DNA of 64,000 bases. Source: Candidatus Limnocylindria bacterium. GTDB lineage: Bacteria; Methylomirabilota; Methylomirabilia; Rokubacteriales; CSP1-6. Location: contig DATLFG010000072.1 of the NCBI GenBank assembly GCA_035524955.1, forward strand, positions 66,173 to 130,172, read 5' to 3'. A model generated the notes under the pieces. The model ran no database searches. It worked only from the letters and a program-made list of their open reading frames with translations, and was not told where the DNA came from. Below are positions 6,726 through 36,959 of the stretch, in pieces (positions within the stretch are counted from its first letter, which is position 1; every line of letters begins with the position of its first letter). The position numbers were made by a program, and so were the translations under genes.

Positions 6726-6803
6726 ATCTTGCCCTGGCACCCCGCCCCCGTGTAGGCTCCGCGCTGTGATGGACACCCTGGTCTCGGGAGGTGGGGGCGG
6801 GTG

Positions 6804-7151
6804 ATGCGGGCCTTCTTGACCCCCACCCCGACCCCCGCCCGGGCCGCCGCGATCCTCCGGCGGGTCTTCGGCAGCTTGCCCGCCTCGTTCGCCTTCCGGC
6901 TCTGGGACGGCCAGGAAGTGCACTTCGGCCAGGACCGGCCCGAGTGCATCACGGTGATCAAGAGCCCGGAGACGTTCCTCTCGCTGATCCGCGACCCTTC
7001 GCCGTACAATTTCGCCGAGGCCTACGTGCAGAGCCGGATCGACCTGGAAGGTGATCTGTTCCGCGCGATGGACGTGGCCAACGTGGTCGAGGAGCTGAAG
7101 GTGACGCCGCTGCAGAAGCTGTCCATCCTCCTGTCGCTGTGGAGGCGGTGA
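6804..7151 (+). CDS. Stand-alone homolog of the N-terminal (dimerisation/lipid-binding) domain of cyclopropane-fatty-acyl-phospholipid synthase
   Basis: …SPETFLSLIRDPSPYNFAEAYVQSRIDLEGDLFRAM… resembles the Cfa N-terminal domain (E. coli …DFFKRVLQEGSLGLGESYMDGWWECDRLDMFF…). SD GGGAGGTGGGGG. The stop overlaps the next start (ATGA). Confidence 0.55.
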   Translation: MRAFLTPTPTPARAAAILRRVFGSLPASFAFRLWDGQEVHFGQDRPECITVIKSPETFLSLIRDPSPYNFAEAYVQSRIDLEGDLFRAMDVANVVEELKVTPLQKLSILLSLWRR

Positions 7152-8275
7152 TGGGCTGGGACGCGATCGTGGTCGGGGGCGGGCCGGGCGGGAGCACCGC
7201 GGCCTGGCGCCTGGCCCTGGCGGGCCTGCGCCCCCTCGTGCTCGACGCCGCGGTCTTCCCGCGGGTGAAGATCTGCGCGGGCTGGGTGACCCCGGAAGCG
7301 CTCGCGGACCTCGAGGTGGATCCCGACAAGTACCCGCTGACCATCCAGCCGTTCGACCAGTGCGTGCTCGAGTTCGCGGGCGCCCGCCACCAGACGGGCT
7401 GGCGGCGGCCCACCAGCTACGGCATCATCCGCCGCGAGTTCGATCACTACCTGCTCGGGCGCGCGGCCGCCGCGGGCGCGGACGTGCGCTGGGGCATCCG
7501 GGTCACCGAGGTGGCCGAGCAGGCCGACCGGGTGCGCGTCGAGACCGATCGCGGCGTGTTCGAGGCGCCGGTGGTGATCGGCGCGGGTGGCCATCGCTGC
7601 CCGGTGGCGCGGGTCCTCGGGCAGGTCTCCGGCCGCGAGGAGGTCGTGGTGGCGCAGGAGAGCGAGACGCGGCTGCCACCCGAGTGGGTCGCGCGCCTCG
7701 AGCCGTTCCTGCGCGCGCCCGAGCTCTACGTCGAGCCCGACCTGCGCGGCTACGGCTGGTACTTCCCGAAGCGCGACTTCGTCAATATCGGCGTTGGATG
7801 CACCCAGGGCGGCGACGGCAGCCTGCCCCGCCGGCGCGACGCGCTGGTGGCGAGCCTGCGCGCTTCCGGCCGGCTGCCCGAGGAGCTCGCGATCGAGCCG
7901 TTCAAGGGCCACGCGTACGTGGTGCGGCGCCAGGCGCCGCGGCGCCTGGCCGGGGCCCGCTTCTGCCTGGTCGGCGATGCGGCCGGGCTCGCCCGCGACC
8001 TGTCGGGCGAGGGGATCGGGCCCGCCATCCGGAGCGGCCGGCTGGCCGCCCTCGCGGTGACCACCCTGATCCGCGAGGGCGCGCCGCTCGACGGCTACGC
8101 GCGGCAGATCGTGGCGCGCTACGGCCCCGGCGAGCTCGGCTGGCTCCCGCGGAAGCTCTCGAATCTCCCGGACGTGCTGGCCCGGCTCGGGGTCCGGATG
8201 GTTCTGGGCTCGGCGGCGGCGCGGCGACGGATCGTGTTCGACTCCATCTTCGGCATGCGAGAGGTGGCGCCATGA
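7151..8275 (+). CDS. Geranylgeranyl-reductase-family FAD-dependent oxidoreductase
   Basis: N-terminal DAIVVGGGPGGSTAAW Rossmann motif. GG-reductase-like middle and C-terminal regions (…GDAAGLARDLSGEGI…). Translationally coupled on both sides (ATGA). Confidence 0.8.
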   Translation: MGWDAIVVGGGPGGSTAAWRLALAGLRPLVLDAAVFPRVKICAGWVTPEALADLEVDPDKYPLTIQPFDQCVLEFAGARHQTGWRRPTSYGIIRREFDHYLLGRAAAAGADVRWGIRVTEVAEQADRVRVETDRGVFEAPVVIGAGGHRCPVARVLGQVSGREEVVVAQESETRLPPEWVARLEPFLRAPELYVEPDLRGYGWYFPKRDFVNIGVGCTQGGDGSLPRRRDALVASLRASGRLPEELAIEPFKGHAYVVRRQAPRRLAGARFCLVGDAAGLARDLSGEGIGPAIRSGRLAALAVTTLIREGAPLDGYARQIVARYGPGELGWLPRKLSNLPDVLARLGVRMVLGSAAARRRIVFDSIFGMREVAP

Positions 8276-9174
8276 CACAGGCTCGATCCAAGGAGCACGA
8301 CGTCCGATCGATCGCGCACCACTACGACGTCTCGAACGACTTCTACGCGCTGTTCCTCGACCCCCTGATGGTCTACACCTGCGCCTACTACCGCGACGCG
8401 GACGGCAAGCTCGAGCAGGCGCAGGAGGACAAGCTCGATCTGGTCTGCCGCAAGCTGCGGCTGCAGGCCGGCGAGCGGGTGCTCGACATCGGCTGCGGCT
8501 GGGGCGGTTTCAGCATCTGGGCCGCCCAGCACTACGGCGTCCGCGCCCACGGGGTCACGCTCTCGAAGGCGCAGGCGGAGTGGGCGGCCGCGCGGATCAA
8601 GCGGGAGGGGCTCGAGGAGCAGTGCCTGGTCGAGTACCGCGACGTCCGGGACCTGCCCGCGGACGCCCGCTACGACAAGATCGCGGCGATCGGGGTCATC
8701 GAGCACGTGGGCATCCCGAACTACCCGTCTTTCTTCGGGCGCGTGAAGGAGATGCTGGTGGACGGGGGGCTCTACCTCAACCACGGCATCCACCACGAGT
8801 TCCACTGGAAGCGCACGAGCCAGACCGATTTCCTGTATCGCCACGTGTTCCCGAACGGCGATCTCTCGGGAGTGACCGAGACGCTCACCGAGATGGAGCG
8901 GGCGGGCTGGGAGCTGCTGGACCTGGAGAACCTGCGGCCGCACTACGCGCGGACGTGCCGCGAGTGGGCGGAGCGCCTCAAGGCCCGCGCGGACGAGGCG
9001 CGCGCGATCGTGGGCGAGCAGATCTACCGGACCTGGCTGCTCTACCTCACGTGCTCGTCGGTGGCTTTCGCAAGCGGCTCCATCGGCCTCTATCAGGTGC
9101 TGATGCAGAAGCAGTGGGACCGCGCGCGCGGCCCCGCGCCCACGACCCGCGAGGACATCTACGCCGGCTGGTAA
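8272..9174 (+). CDS. Cfa-like SAM-dependent methyltransferase (catalytic domain of cyclopropane/methylene fatty-acid synthase, mycolic acid cyclopropane synthetase fold)
   Basis: …HYDVSNDFYALFLDPLMVYTCAYY…VLDIGCGWGGFSIWAA…IAAIGVIEHVG…YRHVFPNGDL… carries the CMAS/Cfa hallmarks. ATG overlaps the upstream TGA. Confidence 0.85.
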   Translation: MTQARSKEHDVRSIAHHYDVSNDFYALFLDPLMVYTCAYYRDADGKLEQAQEDKLDLVCRKLRLQAGERVLDIGCGWGGFSIWAAQHYGVRAHGVTLSKAQAEWAAARIKREGLEEQCLVEYRDVRDLPADARYDKIAAIGVIEHVGIPNYPSFFGRVKEMLVDGGLYLNHGIHHEFHWKRTSQTDFLYRHVFPNGDLSGVTETLTEMERAGWELLDLENLRPHYARTCREWAERLKARADEARAIVGEQIYRTWLLYLTCSSVAFASGSIGLYQVLMQKQWDRARGPAPTTREDIYAGW

Positions 9175-9268
9175 CTATCGGAGGGGGCCTCGGCGGCCCC
9201 CTCCGGGCCTCCCCCCGGTAGCTTGCGCCGGCAAAGGCCGGCGTTCGAACGAAAGCAACGAATGGAGG

Positions 9269-30163: not shown

Positions 30164-30931
30164 TCAGCGGGGCTGCATGCGGATGGCGCCGTCCAGGCGG
30201 ATGATCTCGCCGTTGAGCATCGGGTTCTCGATGATGTGGGCCGCGAGGGCGGCGTACTCGACCGGCCGCCCGAGACGGGGCGGGAAGGGAACCTGCTTGC
30301 CCAGCGAGAGCCGCGCGGGCTCGGGCAGGCCGGCCAGCATCGGCGTCTCGAAGAGGCCGGGGGCGATCGTCATGACCCGGATGCCCAGCTCGGCCAGGTC
30401 GCGGGCGATCGGCAGCGTCATGCCGACTACGCCGCCCTTGGAGGCGGAGTAGGCGGCCTGGCCGATCTGGCCGTCGAAGGCGGCCACGGAGGCGGTGTTG
30501 ATCACCACCCCGCGCTCGCCCTCGGCGTTGGGCGCGTTCTTGGCCATCTGGGCGGCGGCGAGCCGGATGCAGTTGAAGGTACCGATCAGGTTGACCTGGA
30601 TGGTGCGGGCGAAGCCGGCCAGGTCGGCGGGCCCCCGCTTGCCGAAGGTCTTGTCCGCGGTGCCGATGCCCGCGCAGTTGACGAGCGCGCTGACCGCCCC
30701 GAACCGCGCCACCGCCGCCGCGAGCGCCGCGGCGACCTCGTCGGCGCTGGTGACGTCGGCGGGCCCGAAGAGAGCCCGCTCGCCGAGCGCCGCGGCGACC
30801 TGCGCGCCAGGCGACTTCGCGAGGTCGAGCAGTACCACGGCGCCACCGCCGCCGTGCAGGCGCTCCGCGGTCGCCCGGCCGAGGCCGGACGCGCCGCCCG
30901 TGATCACCGTGGTCGATCCCGCGATCTGCAT
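30164..30931 (-). CDS. Short-chain dehydrogenase (3-hydroxyacyl-CoA dehydrogenase type-2 / HSD17B10-like)
   Basis: [25 protein letters not shown]…NCAGI…[39 protein letters not shown] lies upstream of the internal ATG. Confidence 0.8.
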
Positions 30932-30988
30932 GCCGTCCTCCTCCTCCGGGGGCTCTGTCGCCGACGGTGTAGTATAACCGAGCCGACG

Positions 30989-32125
30989 ATGCCGCTTCCC
31001 CTCTGGATCCGGACCCCCGAAGCCCTGGAGATGCTGGCCCGCGAGCTCGAAGGCGCGGGCGCGCTGGCCATCGACACCGAGGCCGACAGCCTGCATCACT
31101 ACCCCGGCAAGCTCTGCCTGGTGCAGGTGGCCGACGCGCGCGGGCGCGGGCACCTGGTGGATCCGCTCGCGCTGCGCGACCTCTCACCCCTCGGGCCCGT
31201 GCTGGCGGATCCGGGTACCCTCAAGGTCCTGCACGCCGCCGACAACGACCTGGCCTATCTCAAGCGCCTGTACGGCGTGACGGTGGTCTCGCTCTTCGAT
31301 ACCGCGGTGGCCGCGCGGTTCCTCGGTGCCCCCGCGCTCGGGCTCGAAGGGCTGCTCACCCAGTACCTGGGGGTGACCGCGGTGAAGTCGCGCCAGAAGG
31401 ACGACTGGTCCCGGCGGCCGCTGACCGCCGCGCAGGAGGATTACGCCCTCGACGACGTGCTCCATCTCATCCCGCTGCGGGAGCGCCTGCTCGAAGCCCT
31501 CCACGCGATCGGGCGGGCGCAGTGGGTGGAGGAGGAGTGCGCGGGGCTGGCCGCGCTGGTGGTGCCCGACAAGCCGGTGGATCCCGACGCCTACATGAAG
31601 CTCAAGGGCGCCCGCGAGCTGGACGCGCGCGGGCTCGCGGTGCTGCGCGAGCTGAACGCCGCGCGCGAGATCCTGGCGCTGCGCCTCGATCGCCCGCCGT
31701 TCATGATCGTGGGCAACGAGAGCCTGGTGGCCCTCGCGGCCCGCCGGCCCCTGGACGCCGAGGGCATCCTGGCGGTGCCGGGCTGCACCCCGCCGGTGGT
31801 ACGCCGCGCCGGCCCCGCCATCCTCGACGCGATCGCGCGCGGGCTCGCGCTGCCCGACGCGGACCTCCCGGCCTACCGCCCGAGCCCTCGGCCCCACGTG
31901 CCCGGGGTGGTGCGGCGGCGCGCGGAGGCCCTACGCGAGTGGCGGGCCAAGGCGGCGAAGGAGATCGGCCTCGAGCCGGGCGTGCTCTTTCCCCAGCGCC
32001 TCATCGACCGGCTCGCCGCGACGCCGCCCGCCGATCTTGGCGCGCTGCGACAGGTCGAGGGCGTGCGCGACTGGCGCGTCGGCCTGTTCGGCGCCGATCT
32101 GCTGAAGGCGCTCGCGGTCCCCTGA
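30989..32125 (+). CDS. rnd: Ribonuclease D (DEDDy 3'-5' exonuclease plus HRDC)
   Basis: …[23 protein letters not shown]… gives exo motif I. Exo motifs …[11 protein letters not shown]… and …YALDDVLHL… follow, then an HRDC-like C-terminus. Confidence 0.8.
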
Positions 32126-32214
32126 CGCTGCGGCTCCCGCCCGCTTGCCCTCGGTACCGGTTGGTGGTACCGGTGGGGTCACGATCCGGATCTGCAGTGG
32201 AAGGGAGGATTCCC

Positions 32215-33171
32215 ATGGCCTCCGATTCCCGGTATTTCCGCGAGGGTATCATCGCCGGCCTGATCGGTGCCGCGCTCGTGGCCGTCTGGTTCCTCATCTA
32301 CGACGCGGCGCTCGGCCGGCCGTTCCGCACGCCCTCGCTGCTCGGCGCCGCCGCATTCCAGGGAGTGAGCGATCCGGCGGCGGTGCCCACCGCGGCCCAG
32401 CTGGTCGTGCAGTACACCGTGCTGCACGGCGTGGTGTTCGCTCTGATCGGCGTGCTCATCGCGTACCTGATCGTCTCGGCCCAGCGCGAGCCGAGCCGCG
32501 TGCTGACCCTGTTCATCGCGCTGCTGTGCTTCGAGGTGTTCTTCCTGGCGGTGCTCACGTGGCTCGCCCACCCGGTGCTCGGCGAGCTCGCCTGGTGGAC
32601 GATCCTCACCGCCAACGCGCTGGCCGCCGGCGGCATGCTCATCTACCTCTTCGTGGGCCACCGCGCGCTCGGGCGCGCCCTGCTGGGGCCGCTCTGGACG
32701 GGCGTCGTGCGCGAGGGCATCGTCGGGGCGCTGCTGGGCGCGGTCGCGGTCGCGCTCTGGTTCCTGGCCTACGACGCGGCGGCGGGGGCGCCGCTGCGCA
32801 CGCCGGCCCTGCTGGGCGCCGCGGTGTTCCACGGCCTGCGTGACCCGGGCGCGCTCGTGATCACGATGCCCCTGGTGCTGCAGTACACGGTGGTTCACGG
32901 CGCCGTCTTCATCCTCTTCGGTCTCGCGGCGGCCGGAATGCTGGCGCTGGCCGATCGCGAGCCGCGGCTGCTCTTCGCCTTCGTCATGCTCTTCTGCTGC
33001 TTCGAGGTCTTCTTCGCGGCGATGCTGGCGATCCTCGCCGAGTGGATGCTCGAGGTGGTCCCCTGGTGGAGCATCCTCGCGGGCAACCTGCTCGCTGCCG
33101 TCGTCATGATGGGCTACTTCTTCCGCGGCCATCGGGTCACCTGGCACGAGTTCATCCACGCGCGCCGCTAG
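32215..33171 (+). CDS. Hypothetical integral membrane protein with an internal tandem duplication (two ~155-aa homologous halves)
   Basis: Half 1 (…IIAGLIGAALVAVWFLIYDAALGRPFRTPSLLGAAAFQGV…QYTVLHGVVFALIG…) and half 2 (…IVGALLGAVAVALWFLAYDAAAGAPLRTPALLGAAVFHGL…QYTVVHGAVFILFG…). SD AAGGGAGG. Confidence 0.55.
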   Translation: MASDSRYFREGIIAGLIGAALVAVWFLIYDAALGRPFRTPSLLGAAAFQGVSDPAAVPTAAQLVVQYTVLHGVVFALIGVLIAYLIVSAQREPSRVLTLFIALLCFEVFFLAVLTWLAHPVLGELAWWTILTANALAAGGMLIYLFVGHRALGRALLGPLWTGVVREGIVGALLGAVAVALWFLAYDAAAGAPLRTPALLGAAVFHGLRDPGALVITMPLVLQYTVVHGAVFILFGLAAAGMLALADREPRLLFAFVMLFCCFEVFFAAMLAILAEWMLEVVPWWSILAGNLLAAVVMMGYFFRGHRVTWHEFIHARR

Positions 33172-33176
33172 CTCCG

Positions 33177-33260
33177 GGGTCAGGTCTTACATTCCGACAT
33201 TTTGGAACGTGAGGGCCGGCCCGCGCCTCGCGAAAATGTCGGAATGTAAGACCTGACCCC
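33177..33260. repeat. Perfect 28-bp inverted repeat flanking a 28-nt loop
   Basis: GGGGTCAGGTCTTACATTCCGACATTTT … AAAATGTCGGAATGTAAGACCTGACCCC. Markedly AT-richer than the surrounding sequence. Confidence 0.8.
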
Positions 33261-33314
33261 AATGTAGACTTCTGCCACGACGCGACACACGACACTGGTG
33301 AGGAGGCGAGCATC

Positions 33315-34079
33315 GTGGCCGACGGGGCGCTGAAGGGGCGGGTGGCGGTGGTGACAGGTGGCAACGGGGGGATCGGCCTCGGCATGGCCCGGGGGTTCGC
33401 GGCCGCCGGCGCGGCGGTCGTGGTCTCGGGGCGCAACGCGGAGAAGAGCCGGGGTGCGGTCGCCGAGCTCACCAAGCTGGGCGCTTCGGCGGTGGCGATC
33501 GAGGCCGACGTGGCCGACGAGGCCGCGGTGAACGCGCTGGTGGGCGCCACCGTGGATCGCTTCGGCCGCCTCGACGTCCTCGTCAACAACGCGGGCATGA
33601 ACATCCGCAAGCCGGTGCACGAGCTGACTCTCGGGGAGTGGCGCCAGGTGCTCGACACCAACCTCACCAGCGCCTTCCTGACGAGCCGCGCGGTGTACCC
33701 GATCATGAAGAAGAACGGGGGCGGGAAGATCATCAACATCGGGTCCATGATGTCGATCTTCGGCGCCTCCTTCGCGCCCGCCTACGCCGCCTCCAAGGGC
33801 GGCATCGTCCAGCTCACCAAGGCGACCGCGTCGGCGTGGGCCCGCGACAACATCCAGGTCAACGCGGTGCTGCCCGGCTGGATCGACACCGAGCTCACCA
33901 CCAACGCGCGGCGTGAGGTCCAGGGCCTCCACGAGCGCGTGCTCGCGCGCACGCCCGCCGCGCGCTGGGGCGTGCCCGACGATCTCTCCGGCATCGCGGT
34001 GTTTCTCGGCGGTCCCGCCTCCGATTTCGTCACCGGTACCGCGATTCCCGTGGACGGAGGCTATTCGATCCAGGGCTGA
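33315..34079 (+). CDS. Short-chain dehydrogenase/reductase (FabG / gluconate-5-dehydrogenase-like)
   Basis: VTGGNGGIGLG…NNAG…SMMSIFGASFAPAYAASKGG…. SD GAGGAGG lies before the GTG. Confidence 0.85.
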   Translation: MADGALKGRVAVVTGGNGGIGLGMARGFAAAGAAVVVSGRNAEKSRGAVAELTKLGASAVAIEADVADEAAVNALVGATVDRFGRLDVLVNNAGMNIRKPVHELTLGEWRQVLDTNLTSAFLTSRAVYPIMKKNGGGKIINIGSMMSIFGASFAPAYAASKGGIVQLTKATASAWARDNIQVNAVLPGWIDTELTTNARREVQGLHERVLARTPAARWGVPDDLSGIAVFLGGPASDFVTGTAIPVDGGYSIQG

Positions 34080-34104
34080 AGTGCGGTACACTGCACGACG
34101 CGTG

Positions 34105-34878
34105 ATGTGGGCGTCGGCACGACTCTTCCTGCTGGCCGTGGTGGTGTCCGGCTGTGCGTCGGCCGCCCCGATCGACGCGGCGGTCCGCCGCCCGGCCCCG
34201 CCCGACCTGCTGCGCTTCGGGGTGGATACCTTCGCGTTCGCCAACGAGAGCCGCAGCAAGAATCGCGGCAAGCCCGACCTCTACGCCAACTACTGCTTCG
34301 TGATGGCGCGGGGCGTGACGCAGTTCCAGCGCTTCGCCCGCTTCGATCCGGCCGCGCCCCGGCTCACCGCCGAGGAGTACGTGGCGCGCGTCCGGCAGGT
34401 GGTCGCCAATGCGCCCTGGGCCGAGTCGTGGCCCCCCGACCGCCGCATCGTGATCCCCGGCTACGCCTCGCTGCACGAGTTCTCCCGCGCCCAGGAGGCG
34501 GCGGTGAAGACGGGGATGGTCGGGCGATTCTGGACGCTCGTGCACTGGACCAACTGGCGGGTGGTGTTCCCGTTCCCGCGCTGGCAGCAGGAGCGCGTCG
34601 CGCGCGAGGCGCTCGCCGAGCTGAGCGAAGGGCGGCCGGTGCAGCTCCTCGTGACGAACTTCCCGACGTGGGAGCTCAACCACACCGTGCTCGCCTACGC
34701 GTACGAGCTCGACGCGGCGGGCAACGTGCGGTTCACGGTCTACGACCCGAACGATCCCGCCCGCGCCGGGCGCGTCACCTTCGATCGGACCGCGCGCCGC
34801 TTCGAGGCGACCCGGCTCCACGACACGGAGCGGGGGCCGATCCGCGCGTTCCGCATGTACTACTGGGCCCTGCTCTAG
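34105..34878 (+). CDS. Hypothetical lipoprotein
   Basis: Signal peptide with lipobox (LLAVVVSGC). No family recognised. First gene of the lipid island. Confidence 0.5.
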   Translation: MWASARLFLLAVVVSGCASAAPIDAAVRRPAPPDLLRFGVDTFAFANESRSKNRGKPDLYANYCFVMARGVTQFQRFARFDPAAPRLTAEEYVARVRQVVANAPWAESWPPDRRIVIPGYASLHEFSRAQEAAVKTGMVGRFWTLVHWTNWRVVFPFPRWQQERVAREALAELSEGRPVQLLVTNFPTWELNHTVLAYAYELDAAGNVRFTVYDPNDPARAGRVTFDRTARRFEATRLHDTERGPIRAFRMYYWALL

Positions 34879-34882
34879 GCCG

Positions 34883-35791
34883 ATGGCGAGCGAGCCCGCC
34901 GCGCCCGACTGGTATTCGCATGGACTCAACCGGGTGGCCTACTACCGGCTGGCGAGCGCCGCCGCGGCGGCGCTGCCTCGCTCCGCGCGCCTGCGGATCG
35001 CGCGCGCGCTCGGCCGGCTGCTCGCGCGCGCGCTGCCCGCGGAGCGCCGGGCGGTGCGGAGCAACCTCGGGCGCGTGCTCGCGGGATCGGGGCCCGCCCT
35101 GATCGAGGCGCAGGTGGCGGAGACGTTCGCCAACTTCGGGGCCTTCTTCGCGGATCTCCTCACCCTCAACCGCCGCCCGGGCGCTGACCTCCGCGCCTTC
35201 GTCGCGTCCGCCGACGGGGAGCATCACCTCGACGCGGGCCTCGTGTCCGGGCGGGGCGTGGTGCTGCTCACCGCACACCTCGGCAACTGGGAGCTCGCGG
35301 GGCGGCTCCTGTCGTCCCGCGGCGGCCGCACCGCCCACGTGGTGCTCTCCGCCGAGCAGGACGCCGCGCTCGAGCGTTACCTCCGTCTCGACGGCCCGCA
35401 GCTCCGCTTCGTGACGCGCCACCACGCCACCTCCACGCTCGGCCTGCTCGCCGCGCTCCGGCGCGCCGAGCTGGTGGCGATGCAGGCAGACCGGCCCAGC
35501 GGCGGGCGGGGCGACGCGATCGTGCCCTTCTTCGGCGAGCCCGCCGCGTTTCCGCTGGGGCCCTTCGTGCTGGCCCGGGCGGCGGGCGCGGCGGTGGTGC
35601 CCGCCTTCTGTGCGATGGCGCCGAGCGGCCGCTATCGGCTCGAGATCGATCCGCCGATCTGGGTCAAGCCCGGCGAGGAGCAGGCCGGCCTCACCACCGT
35701 GGTCGCCGCGCTGGAGCGCGTGATCCGCGCGCAGCCCACCCAGTGGTTCAACTTCTTCGACGCATGGAGCCCGCCCGGTGGCCACCCCTGA
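34883..35791 (+). CDS. LpxL/HtrB-family (lipid A biosynthesis lauroyl/myristoyl) acyltransferase
   Basis: LPLAT_LABLAT-like with an HX4E motif (TAHLGNWELAG) and …QADRPSGGRGDAIVPFFGEPAAFPLGPFVLA…. Confidence 0.75.
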   Translation: MASEPAAPDWYSHGLNRVAYYRLASAAAAALPRSARLRIARALGRLLARALPAERRAVRSNLGRVLAGSGPALIEAQVAETFANFGAFFADLLTLNRRPGADLRAFVASADGEHHLDAGLVSGRGVVLLTAHLGNWELAGRLLSSRGGRTAHVVLSAEQDAALERYLRLDGPQLRFVTRHHATSTLGLLAALRRAELVAMQADRPSGGRGDAIVPFFGEPAAFPLGPFVLARAAGAAVVPAFCAMAPSGRYRLEIDPPIWVKPGEEQAGLTTVVAALERVIRAQPTQWFNFFDAWSPPGGHP

Positions 35792-36959
35792 GCGCGTGGT
35801 GGTCGCCGCCGCCGGGGTCGTGACCCCGATCGGTCAGGACCTCGAGGCGTTCTGGTCCTCGCTGGTCACCGGGGCCTCGGGCATCTCGCAGATCGAGCGC
35901 GTGCCGGTGGCCGACCTGCGCGTGCAGCGGGGCGGCGAGGTCAAGAAGCTCGGCCGCATCAAGGACTGGCGCGGCGTGCCCGAGTGCCGCGCGAGCCGCC
36001 TCCTGATCGCGGCCGCCGACGACCTCTGCGCGCAGGCCGGCTTCCGCCCGCTCCCGCTGGATCCGGCGCGGGTTGGGGTGGTGGTCGGCACCGCCCTGGG
36101 CGGCGTGGAGGAGGGGGAGAAGGCGCTCGCGGGCGACCGCGGGCGTCGGCGGCTGCCGCAGGCGCTCTATGACGGCCCCGGCTGGGCGCTCGCGCGGTGG
36201 CTCGGCGCGCGCGGGCCGGTGATCACGGTGTCCACCGCGTGCGCCTCGGGCGCCACCGCGATGGCGGTCGGCGCCGATCTGCTGCGCGCGGGCGAGGCCG
36301 ACGCGGTGGTGGCGGGAGGCTACGACGCGCTCTGCCGGTTCGTGCTGCGCGGCTTCGACGCCCTCCGATCGCTCACGCGCGACGAGGTCCGGCCGTTCGA
36401 TCGCCGCCGCAGCGGCCTGCTTCTGGGCGAGGCGGGCGCGCTCGCCCTGCTGGTGCGCGAGCGGGACGCGCGGGGCCCGCGGCTCGGCACCCTGCTGGGT
36501 TACGGCAGCGCCAGCGACGGCTTCCACATCGCGGCGCCCGAGCCGGAGGGTCGCGGCCTCGAGCGGGCGATCCGCGCCGCGCTCGCCGACGCGCGCGTCT
36601 CGGCCGCGGACATCGACCTGGTGAGCGCGCACGGTACCGCCACCCCGCTCAACGACCCGATCGAGACGGCCGCGCTCAAGCGGGCGCTGGGGCGGCGGGC
36701 CCACGAGATCCCGATCAACTCCATCAAGGGTAGCCTGGGGCACACCATGGGCGCCGCCGCCGCGCTCGAGGCCTTCATGTGTCTGCTGTCGGCGCAGCGG
36801 GGCCTGATCCCGCCCACCCTGCACCTGGAGGAGCCCGATCCGGTGTGCGATCTCGACTACGTGCCGGGCCGGGCGCGTCCGGGGCGGCCCCGCGTCATGC
36901 TGAGCACGTCCATGGGGTTCGGCGGCTGCAACGGGGCCCTCGTGCTCGAGGCCGCCTGA
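35778..36959 (+). CDS. Beta-ketoacyl-ACP synthase (FabF/KAS II-like)
   Basis: Active-site TACASG, His motifs (HGTATP… and …GHTMGAAAAL…) and a C-terminal GFGGCNGALVLE. Confidence 0.85.
   Translation: MATPERVVVAAAGVVTPIGQDLEAFWSSLVTGASGISQIERVPVADLRVQRGGEVKKLGRIKDWRGVPECRASRLLIAAADDLCAQAGFRPLPLDPARVGVVVGTALGGVEEGEKALAGDRGRRRLPQALYDGPGWALARWLGARGPVITVSTACASGATAMAVGADLLRAGEADAVVAGGYDALCRFVLRGFDALRSLTRDEVRPFDRRRSGLLLGEAGALALLVRERDARGPRLGTLLGYGSASDGFHIAAPEPEGRGLERAIRAALADARVSAADIDLVSAHGTATPLNDPIETAALKRALGRRAHEIPINSIKGSLGHTMGAAAALEAFMCLLSAQRGLIPPTLHLEEPDPVCDLDYVPGRARPGRPRVMLSTSMGFGGCNGALVLEAA

Follow-up and report, generated by a model that had tools for sequence, protein, structure and literature searches.

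A Cfa-like methyltransferase divided around a TmpA-like flavoprotein: a putative cassette for mid-chain methyl-branched acyl chains in uncultured bacteria

The two described systems closest to the locus reported here each pair a homologue of the cyclopropane fatty acid (CFA) synthase Cfa with a reductase-type partner. The bfaAB genes direct tuberculostearic acid synthesis in actinomycetes (Machida et al. 2017, PMC5660069; Blitzblau et al. 2021), where the Cfa homologue BfaB makes a 10-methylene acyl chain from a Δ9-unsaturated chain and BfaA, an oxidase-type protein linked to flavin adenine dinucleotide (FAD), reduces the 10-methylene product (Blitzblau et al. 2021, PMC7791843). In the tmpBA ('ten-methyl palmitate') operon, known from Desulfobacter, Desulfobacula, Marinobacter, and Thiohalospira, the Cfa-like TmpB is accompanied by TmpA, a putative reductase resembling the geranylgeranyl reductases (GGRs); TmpB turns 16:1-Δ9 into 10-methylene-16:0 in Escherichia coli, and four of five cloned tmpBA operons gave 10-methylene-palmitate in that host, with 10-methyl-palmitate obtained from none (Blitzblau et al. 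2021, PMC7791843). No later paper on the tmp genes was found in the literature searched. Here we describe a three-gene cassette at positions 6804–9174 of a 64,000-nucleotide stretch of contig DATLFG010000072.1 (positions 66,173 to 130,172 of the forward strand; assembly GCA_035524955.1, Candidatus Limnocylindria bacterium, in the GTDB lineage Methylomirabilota); this whole stretch is referred to as the window. A Cfa-type enzyme is divided here between two open reading frames (ORFs) and a gene for a TmpA-like flavoprotein lies between them. Sequence comparisons suggest, with a probability of roughly 0.6, that the module makes mid-chain methyl-branched acyl chains by methylenation followed by reduction.

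The cassette is filled exactly, and without gaps, by three ORFs on the forward strand. ORF A (6804..7151; 115 amino acids) encodes a stand-alone Cfa-type N-terminal domain matching Pfam DUF7884 and the NCBIfam CfaB model, ORF B (7151..8275; 374 amino acids) a TmpA-like FAD flavoprotein of the TIGR02032 family that is a putative exomethylene reductase, and ORF C (8272..9174; 300 amino acids) a BfaB-like S-adenosylmethionine (SAM) methyltransferase domain of the CMAS family that is a putative acyl-chain methylenase. Because ORF A and ORF C match positions 5–80 and 96–393 of the 393-position CfaB model, they correspond to two halves of one Cfa-type enzyme, and when the two are concatenated and aligned with E. 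coli Cfa, four TmpBs, and three BfaBs the break falls exactly in the inter-domain linker. An earlier note on this DNA had described a split Cfa-like synthase with a GGR-family flavoprotein between its halves, all translationally coupled, and the three ORFs with their DUF7884, TIGR02032, and CMAS matches bear this out. It had also placed ATGA overlaps at both junctions; this is correct for B/C (8272–8275), but the A/B junction is TGATG, a 1-nt overlap between the stop codon of ORF A (7149–7151) and the ATG of ORF B (7151–7153), and becomes GTGA only with an in-frame GTG at 7148 as the start. Shine-Dalgarno-like GGAGG or GAGG sequences, read from the sequence, are situated 5–12 nt upstream of all three starts (6787–6791, 12 nt 5′ of the ORF A start; 7141–7145; 8261–8264). 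The G+C content at third codon positions (GC3) is ~0.90 for ORF A and ORF B, and that of the window as a whole is ~72%.

Like tmpBA, the cassette contains a full-length TmpA homologue that shares all of the family-invariant motifs and is flanked on both sides by Cfa-derived genes, and ORF A belongs to the same Pfam family as the N terminus of Marinobacter TmpB, in which DUF7884 occupies residues 44–121 just ahead of the CMAS domain. It differs in layout: tmpB encodes a single polypeptide and precedes tmpA, whereas the methyltransferase is split here and the order is N-domain, A-like protein, catalytic domain. The catalytic domain is moreover not orthologous to TmpB in the neighbour-joining (NJ) tree discussed below, and the hosts are uncultured soil and sediment phyla rather than the Proteobacteria or Desulfobacterota of the published operons. 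The resemblance to bfaAB lies in a methyltransferase domain that is sister to BfaB and, like it, has Thr just ahead of the active-site Cys and a non-aromatic residue just ahead of the catalytic Glu, and in the apparent logic of methylenation followed by flavin-dependent reduction. BfaA, however, is unrelated to ORF B, and BfaB is a single fused polypeptide; no BfaA homologue was found by tblastn with T. curvata BfaA, either in the window (best E 0.12) or, at E ≤ 1e-3, in the 82 loci compared. The TmpA, TmpB, BfaA, and BfaB sequences used throughout are from the supplement of PMC7791843.

The Cfa enzymes themselves (E. coli 6BQC, Aquifex 7QOS, Lactobacillus 5Z9O) have the same combination of an SCP2-like N-domain and a CMAS domain and the same bicarbonate-site residues, but carry both domains on one polypeptide, have Ser/Phe rather than Thr/Ile at E. 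coli positions 138 and 238, and lack a dedicated flavoprotein partner. A Cfa-like methyltransferase and a flavoprotein also act on phospholipid acyl chains in the UfaM/UfaD/UfaO furan fatty acid pathway of Rhodobacter. There UfaD belongs to another flavoprotein family and acts as a desaturase, and the route requires a third enzyme, UfaO. The cassette is without a conserved UfaO-like or other extra partner, a comparison made at the level of the pathway.

ORF B scores 173.5 bits against TIGR02032, the geranylgeranyl reductase family (curated cut-off 158.8), and is 37% identical over residues 3–372 to the TmpA proteins of Marinobacter and Thiohalospira (E 7e-60 and 9e-53, respectively). This likeness covers the full length, C-terminal extension included, and identity to the shorter Desulfobacter-type TmpA is 30–33%. 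The nearest 50%-identity cluster representatives are dominated by TmpA relatives, and homologues at 77–91% identity are named Methylomirabilota or Candidatus Rokuibacteriota. In an alignment of 24 diverse ORF B relatives (A1) the motifs FPRxKxCAGW, GAGGxxCP, GYxW...K...NxGxG, GHxY, GDAAG, and EGI are invariant across the TmpA-like family. The T. acidophilum GGR (3oz2) is both the best PDB match of the family profile (E 2.7e-29) and the best structure match of the AlphaFold2 model of ORF B (predicted local distance difference test score, pLDDT, 76.5; template modelling score, TM, 0.75). Cys42, invariant in the family, aligns to the Cys of VRCGEG in GGR, and GYGWYFPK..NIGVG (family GYxWxFPK..NxGxG) aligns to the GGR motif YxWxFP..GxG. 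Compared with the GGRs (3OZ2, S. acidocaldarius GGR 3ATQ, BchP/ChlP, MenJ), ORF B has the same fold and FAD-binding motifs but only ~20% identity and falls below every function-specific curated cut-off, and its clade is set apart by FPRxKxCAGW and GAGGxxCP and by a near-constant Cfa-like neighbour.

Membership of a family that saturates isoprenoid chains raises an alternative in which the substrate is an isoprenoid or other long alkyl chain (menaquinone, polyprenol, a hopanoid side chain, or an ether or membrane-spanning lipid) that is methylated and saturated. Two further points favor it: the label 'menaquinone-9 beta-reductase' that many ORF B homologues carry at the Joint Genome Institute (JGI), and the presence of fused tmpBA in Acidobacteria (Vicinamibacterales, Bryobacteraceae). 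We consider this substrate improbable, since ORF B fails the relevant models, the characterized close relatives of the methyltransferase (BfaB, TmpB, Cfa) all use unsaturated phospholipid fatty acyl chains, and in Cfa enzymes it is the N-domain that handles the phospholipid (PMC11387697). Identities as MenJ (77.5 bits against a cut-off of 700), BchP/ChlP (118.6 against 343.3), or the archaeal digeranylgeranylglycerophospholipid (DGGGPL) reductase (55.8 against 580) were all rejected, and from its sequence relationships the menaquinone reductase label is probably wrong.

Group-A flavin monooxygenases and halogenases share the ORF B fold and score slightly below GGR; identity as a halogenase or monooxygenase was not adopted because the GGR-specific Cys and YxWxFP motif are conserved family-wide. 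The flavoprotein could still act non-reductively, by desaturation, isomerization, or oxygenation, to give methyl-branched unsaturated or furan-type fatty acids, and the narrow difference in fold score fits such a role. Reductase activity of TmpA has never been observed (PMC7791843), and Candidatus Methylomirabilis, a member of the same phylum, makes the unusual 10-methyl-16:1-Δ7, which offers a precedent (PMC6581649). A non-reductive role is nonetheless unlikely, as the GGR-aligned Cys and GYxWxFPK..NxGxG are conserved throughout the TmpA-like family, the best sequence and fold match of the flavoprotein is GGR, the hosts that define the tmpBA operon contain saturated 10-methyl-16:0 (PMC7791843, Table S2), and no UfaO-like or additional gene is conserved beside the cassette.

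ORF C matches Pfam CMAS (PF02353) with 302 bits (cut-off 27; E 4e-90). Its best curated matches are cyclopropane synthase models, alongside the solved CFA synthases, and all five residues of the E. coli Cfa bicarbonate site (C139, E239, H266, I268, Y317), typical of cyclopropane synthases, are present. The cassette might on these grounds encode an ordinary CFA synthase that happens to be split, with a flavoprotein that does some other lipid job and is merely co-transcribed. We regard this as a poor prospect. The curated CFA synthase equivalog models are missed widely (CfaB NF040703, 323.9 bits against a cut-off of 650; PRK11705, 250.1 against 400; NF053839, 248.2 against 600), and BfaB and TmpB, which are methylenases, conserve the bicarbonate site just as well (by alignment; PMC7791843). 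ORF C also groups with BfaB and has the methylenase-type Thr/Ile pair, and the near-constant position of the flavoprotein family beside a Cfa-like gene with which it co-diverges is hard to explain without a shared pathway.

The methyltransferase tree was constructed by NJ from 252 catalytic-domain columns of 86 sequences with 200 bootstraps. The split methyltransferases are monophyletic in 199 of 200 bootstraps and are sister to, rather than nested within, the actinobacterial BfaB proteins, with modest support (152/200); they group with the fused TmpBs in a single bootstrap of the 200. Catalytic-domain identities follow the same order, at 45–48% (mean 45%) to BfaB, 39% to fused TmpBs, and 38% to CFA synthases.

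A search for alignment columns separating CMAS enzymes of known outcome yielded two that adjoin the active site, at E. coli positions 138 (before C139) and 238 (before E239). The pair is Ser/Phe in eight enzymes that form no exomethylene product (the E. coli, Aquifex, and Lactobacillus CFA synthases, CmaA1, CmaA2, PcaA, MmaA2, and MmaA4), and Thr with Met, Leu, or Thr in all seven known TmpB/BfaB methylenases; UmaA, which belongs to neither group, is a mixed Thr/Phe case. ORF C (at approximately T36 and I143) and all 36 split methyltransferases have Thr/Ile, and the fused TmpB-like enzymes have Thr (38/38) and Leu (37/38), such that all 74 TmpA-associated methyltransferases examined have Thr and a non-aromatic residue. 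As a marker of an exomethylene product this pair is suggestive, not diagnostic.

ORF A matches DUF7884 with 34.6 bits (cut-off 27; E 2.3e-8), and a hidden Markov model (HMM) of stand-alone N-domain proteins matches the N termini of the fused TmpBs and of T. curvata BfaB. An AlphaFold2 model (pLDDT 84) has as its top PDB fold match the N-domain of Aquifex CFA synthase (7qos; weak, E ~1e-3), followed by SCP2 and UbiJ-SCP2 proteins with scores that are weak but consistent, so that ORF A is predicted to be a Cfa-type N-domain with an SCP2-like lipid-binding fold. The segment matching E. coli Cfa residues 57–68, which in that enzyme contacts the catalytic domain (PMC11387697), is nearly invariant (F70, A71, V75, G83, and D84 invariant). 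Free-standing N-domains of this kind form 548 clusters at 90% identity in metagenomes, and the top 120 are all stand-alone proteins of 113–139 amino acids. Homologues are labelled 'hypothetical protein' or, at times, 'SCP2 sterol-binding domain-containing protein' or 'cyclopropane-fatty-acyl-phospholipid synthase'. A mosaic origin, with a TmpB-type N-domain joined to a BfaB-type catalytic domain, was also considered; the HMM matches fused TmpBs and BfaB about equally and no conclusion was drawn.

N-domain, flavoprotein, and CMAS matches were mapped onto the six-frame ORFs of 80 loci, the best among the matches listed in a scan that covered each GTDB species with one genome. Each of the 38 genome loci with a flavoprotein at least 48% identical to ORF B has the order N-domain, flavoprotein, CMAS, as do two long metagenome contigs with different flanks (40/40 related loci). 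The hosts are Rokubacteria/Methylomirabilota, Binatia, Nitrospinota, Tectomicrobia, and several metagenome-assembled genomes (MAGs) that are unclassified or named 'delta proteobacterium'. The other 42 loci have flavoproteins with 37–46% identity, and in 38 of these a fused N+CMAS gene is immediately 5′ of the flavoprotein gene; hosts of this form are Gammaproteobacteria, Vicinamibacterales and other Acidobacteria, Planctomycetes, Spirochaetes, and Thermodesulfobacteriota. One of the remaining four is cut inside the upstream gene (L059), two are cut by contig ends (L041, L050), and one, L042, is without CMAS. These counts place the TmpA-like flavoprotein family almost always in linkage with a Cfa-like methyltransferase. 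L042 (Magnetococcales, PEAK01000002.1; P0130 cluster), with a TmpA-like protein 40% identical to ORF B and 5 kb of surroundings free of any Cfa-like gene, alone departs clearly from this linkage among the best 80 loci.

The spacing is also conserved. The N-domain and flavoprotein genes are separated by −4 to +4 nt in 36 of 41 split loci, and the flavoprotein and methyltransferase genes by −4 nt in every Rokubacteria-type locus and by 4–49 nt in most others. All-against-all clustering of flanking ORFs revealed no other shared gene, with no conserved ferredoxin, desaturase, or bfaC-like partner; N, B, C, and antisense shadow ORFs are all that is shared, and the unit is therefore a three-gene cassette. 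The flavoproteins of the split loci form one clade in 200 of 200 NJ bootstraps, and pairwise distances of flavoproteins and methyltransferases are correlated (Pearson r=0.93 within split loci, 0.92 overall). The recurrence of this order and spacing goes far beyond what chance would give. On their co-divergence, the two genes have travelled together since before the versions in these phyla diverged.

Several of the loci have peculiarities of their own. The window itself comes from a soil-dwelling organism of the Rokubacteria type, and the genome contigs closest to it are 86–93% identical in DNA. Three contigs with Rokubacteria-type cassettes, L004 (DATIWG010000035.1), L011 (DASRWT010000065.1), and L006 (JBGQIE010000277.1), with flavoprotein identities of 75–92% and contig G+C of ~70%, are in MAGs titled Nitrosotalea sp. 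and Candidatus Nitrosocosmicus sp. (both ammonia-oxidizing archaea) and Candidatus Eisenbacteria, respectively; L004 is 84–89% identical to the window in DNA, and all three are almost certainly mis-binned. Two contigs of one MAG (CAWIZN01), L008 and L009, carry two copies of the cassette. The methyltransferase ORF of L008 is without its usual stop and runs on for 985 amino acids toward the downstream acyl-CoA synthetase region, and the N-domain gene of L009 is in two fragments; such anomalies might reflect a decaying duplicate, mixed strains, or an error of assembly. Apparent fusions of N-domain with flavoprotein and of flavoprotein with methyltransferase (P0231, P0212, P0236, P0148) are riddled with frameshifts and were set aside as artefacts. 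P0185 (459 amino acids) has the last ~70 residues of a TmpB-type methyltransferase, a ~40-residue linker, and a complete TmpA-like flavoprotein in frame, and is ambiguous between a natural TmpB-TmpA fusion and a gene-calling artefact.

In the pathway that we favor, the SCP2-like ORF A would dock in trans on ORF C and rebuild a two-domain enzyme of the Cfa/BfaB type, which would move a methyl group from SAM to the cis double bond of a phospholipid acyl chain. Loss of a proton from the newly added carbon would leave an exomethylene branch, and the TmpA-like ORF B with reduced FAD would convert this to a methyl branch. The reduction would be chemically close to the GGR reaction, because GGRs saturate a methyl-bearing C=C bond in a lipid (isoprenoid) chain. 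Translational coupling in the order N-domain, reductase, methyltransferase would supply the three polypeptides together at a fixed ratio, and the gene order and overlaps suggest co-translational assembly. The cassette would then be a hybrid pairing of a putative BfaB-like methylenase with a putative TmpA-like reductase, and by analogy with its homologues the product is most likely of the 10-methyl-16:0/18:0 type, in membrane phospholipids. Tentatively, the fission may itself be functional, with the free N-domain serving as a lipid-presenting subunit shared within a three-protein complex; it would pull an acyl chain from the bilayer and pass it to the methyltransferase and then to the reductase, such that the reactive 10-methylene intermediate would never be released.

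The earlier note had proposed a Cfa-like methyltransferase acting with a flavoprotein that reduces C=C bonds, leading to 10-methyl-type chains, and this gains support from the TmpA homology, the sister placement with BfaB, the co-divergence, and the lack of BfaA. Two of the checks it suggested, a phylogenetic comparison of the methyltransferase with Cfa and BfaB and a comparison of gene order in related genomes, came out on the same side, as did every other comparison made. Its contrary case, that the flavoprotein is an unrelated, recent insertion, is contradicted by the co-divergence with the methyltransferase and by the single flavoprotein clade, and its view that a stand-alone Cfa N-domain is unusual did not survive, since such proteins are numerous in metagenomes and simply unannotated.

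Two circumstantial observations concern organisms in which the product may occur. Candidatus Methylomirabilis has 10-methyl-16:0 as a typical lipid (PMC6581649). Candidatus Methylomirabilis oxyfera is known for this fatty acid; no Methylomirabilis genome is among the best 80 loci, and no assignment of genes to this lipid was found in the literature searched. Steroidobacter agaridevorans SA29-B carries fused tmpBA (L048), and its fatty acids include 7.6% of MIDI summed feature 9 (iso-17:1w9c and/or 10-methyl-16:0) (PMC7966939).

Several points weigh against methylenation followed by reduction. The reference reductase is itself putative, as neither E. coli nor yeast yielded a 10-methyl product with TmpA (PMC7791843). 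No electron donor is encoded in the cassette and no flanking candidate is conserved, all hosts of the split cassette are uncultured, and the proposed branch position and chain length are carried over from homologues. The sister placement with BfaB is an NJ result with modest bootstrap support, and because the methylenase Desulfobacter TmpB clusters with E. coli Cfa in 197 of 200 bootstraps, product type is not predictable from phylogeny alone. That same TmpB has the methylenase-type residue pair, so the signature is not simply phylogenetic, but it is drawn from only 15 enzymes and MmaA4 retains Ser/Phe though it is not a cyclopropane synthase.

The fission is a further difficulty. According to the account in PMC11387697 of Hari et al. 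2018, the domains of E. coli Cfa supplied as separate proteins have sharply lower activity, and a natural split must therefore be compensated somehow. This impairment, together with the fragmented N-domain gene of L009 and the lost methyltransferase stop of L008, could suggest that insertion of the flavoprotein gene broke a fused gene, of which the split form would be a decaying or non-functional remnant. The three ORFs are intact with high GC3, however, 40 other loci in several phyla keep the lengths, catalytic residues, and coupling, and the N-domain retains its equivalent of the E. coli Cfa segment that touches the catalytic domain; this conservation effectively refutes decay. The four rival explanations (a plain CFA synthase, a non-reductive flavoprotein, an isoprenoid or other alkyl substrate, and decay) together take up a clear minority of the probability.

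The sequences around the cassette suggest where it ends. A GC-rich stem-loop directly 3′ of the ORF C stop (9175..9221, forward strand; minimum free energy −32 kcal/mol, z = −2.5 against shuffles) is the likely end of the transcription unit. It is without a U-tract and was not called by a consensus terminator scan; the promoter and terminator consensus scan of the cassette found nothing, and neither tRNAs nor Rfam families are present in the window. DNA similarity to the closest relatives, L003–L007 (86–93%), begins abruptly at 6797, 7 nt 5′ of ORF A, and the upstream flank is thus a synteny breakpoint. Similarity ends at the ORF C stop and picks up again at 9267–13343 in L003–L005, so that the hairpin-bearing spacer (9175–9266) is not conserved. 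These patterns of similarity are consistent with a cassette that behaves as a movable unit. Its neighbours in the window, genes for an enoyl-CoA hydratase, a DinB-family protein, and an acyl-CoA synthetase, are not kept beside it in more distant relatives. Genes of the fatty-acid-synthesis type are located ~20 kb downstream (30164–36959) and include two short-chain dehydrogenase/enoyl-ACP-reductase-like proteins (30164–31183, leftwards; 33213–34079, rightwards) and a beta-ketoacyl synthase (35724–36959, rightwards); annotation of this region used a GC3 filter, which left out the stretches at 31–33 kb and 37–42.7 kb.

A Cfa-like enzyme with a GGR-type partner has already been published as tmpBA, and the route itself has precedent. 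The novelty lies in a methyltransferase cut at its linker around the reductase gene, a layout shared by all 40 related loci and spanning several phyla, in the pairing of a BfaB-like with a TmpA-like protein, in the abundant uncultured soil and sediment hosts, and in the residue signature. Public annotation of the three genes ('hypothetical protein', 'menaquinone-9 beta-reductase', 'cyclopropane-fatty-acyl-phospholipid synthase') is uninformative or wrong.

Fused tmpBA-type operons are common in soil Acidobacteria (L061–L065, L067, L071, and L082, from Vicinamibacterales, Luteitalea, other Acidobacteriota, and Bryobacteraceae). Acidobacteria are known for unusual branched membrane-spanning lipids, and a connection between fused tmpBA and the extra methyl branches of those lipids is pure speculation.

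These findings extend a little-studied pathway of a methylenase with a GGR-like reductase from a few cultured Proteobacteria and Desulfobacterota to abundant uncultured phyla. A BfaB-like methyltransferase with a TmpA-like reductase would mean that two unrelated types of reductase have been swapped onto related methylenases during evolution. The residues that precede the catalytic Cys and Glu may determine whether the outcome is exomethylene, cyclopropane, or something else, and a natural fission at the linker, in a family in which an artificial split cripples the E. coli enzyme, offers a way to study the role of the N-domain. Should the product prove to be a 10-methyl fatty acid, the use of 10-methyl-16:0 and 10-methyl-18:0 phospholipid fatty acids (PLFAs) as markers of actinomycetes and sulfate reducers would need qualification. 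Fused tmpBA in soil Acidobacteria may likewise confound the assignment of 10-methyl PLFAs to actinomycetes. A corollary of the more tentative reading, in which the fission is functional, is that soils and sediments would hold major unrecognized sources of these lipids in Rokubacteria, Binatia, Nitrospinota, and, through the fused form, Vicinamibacterales.

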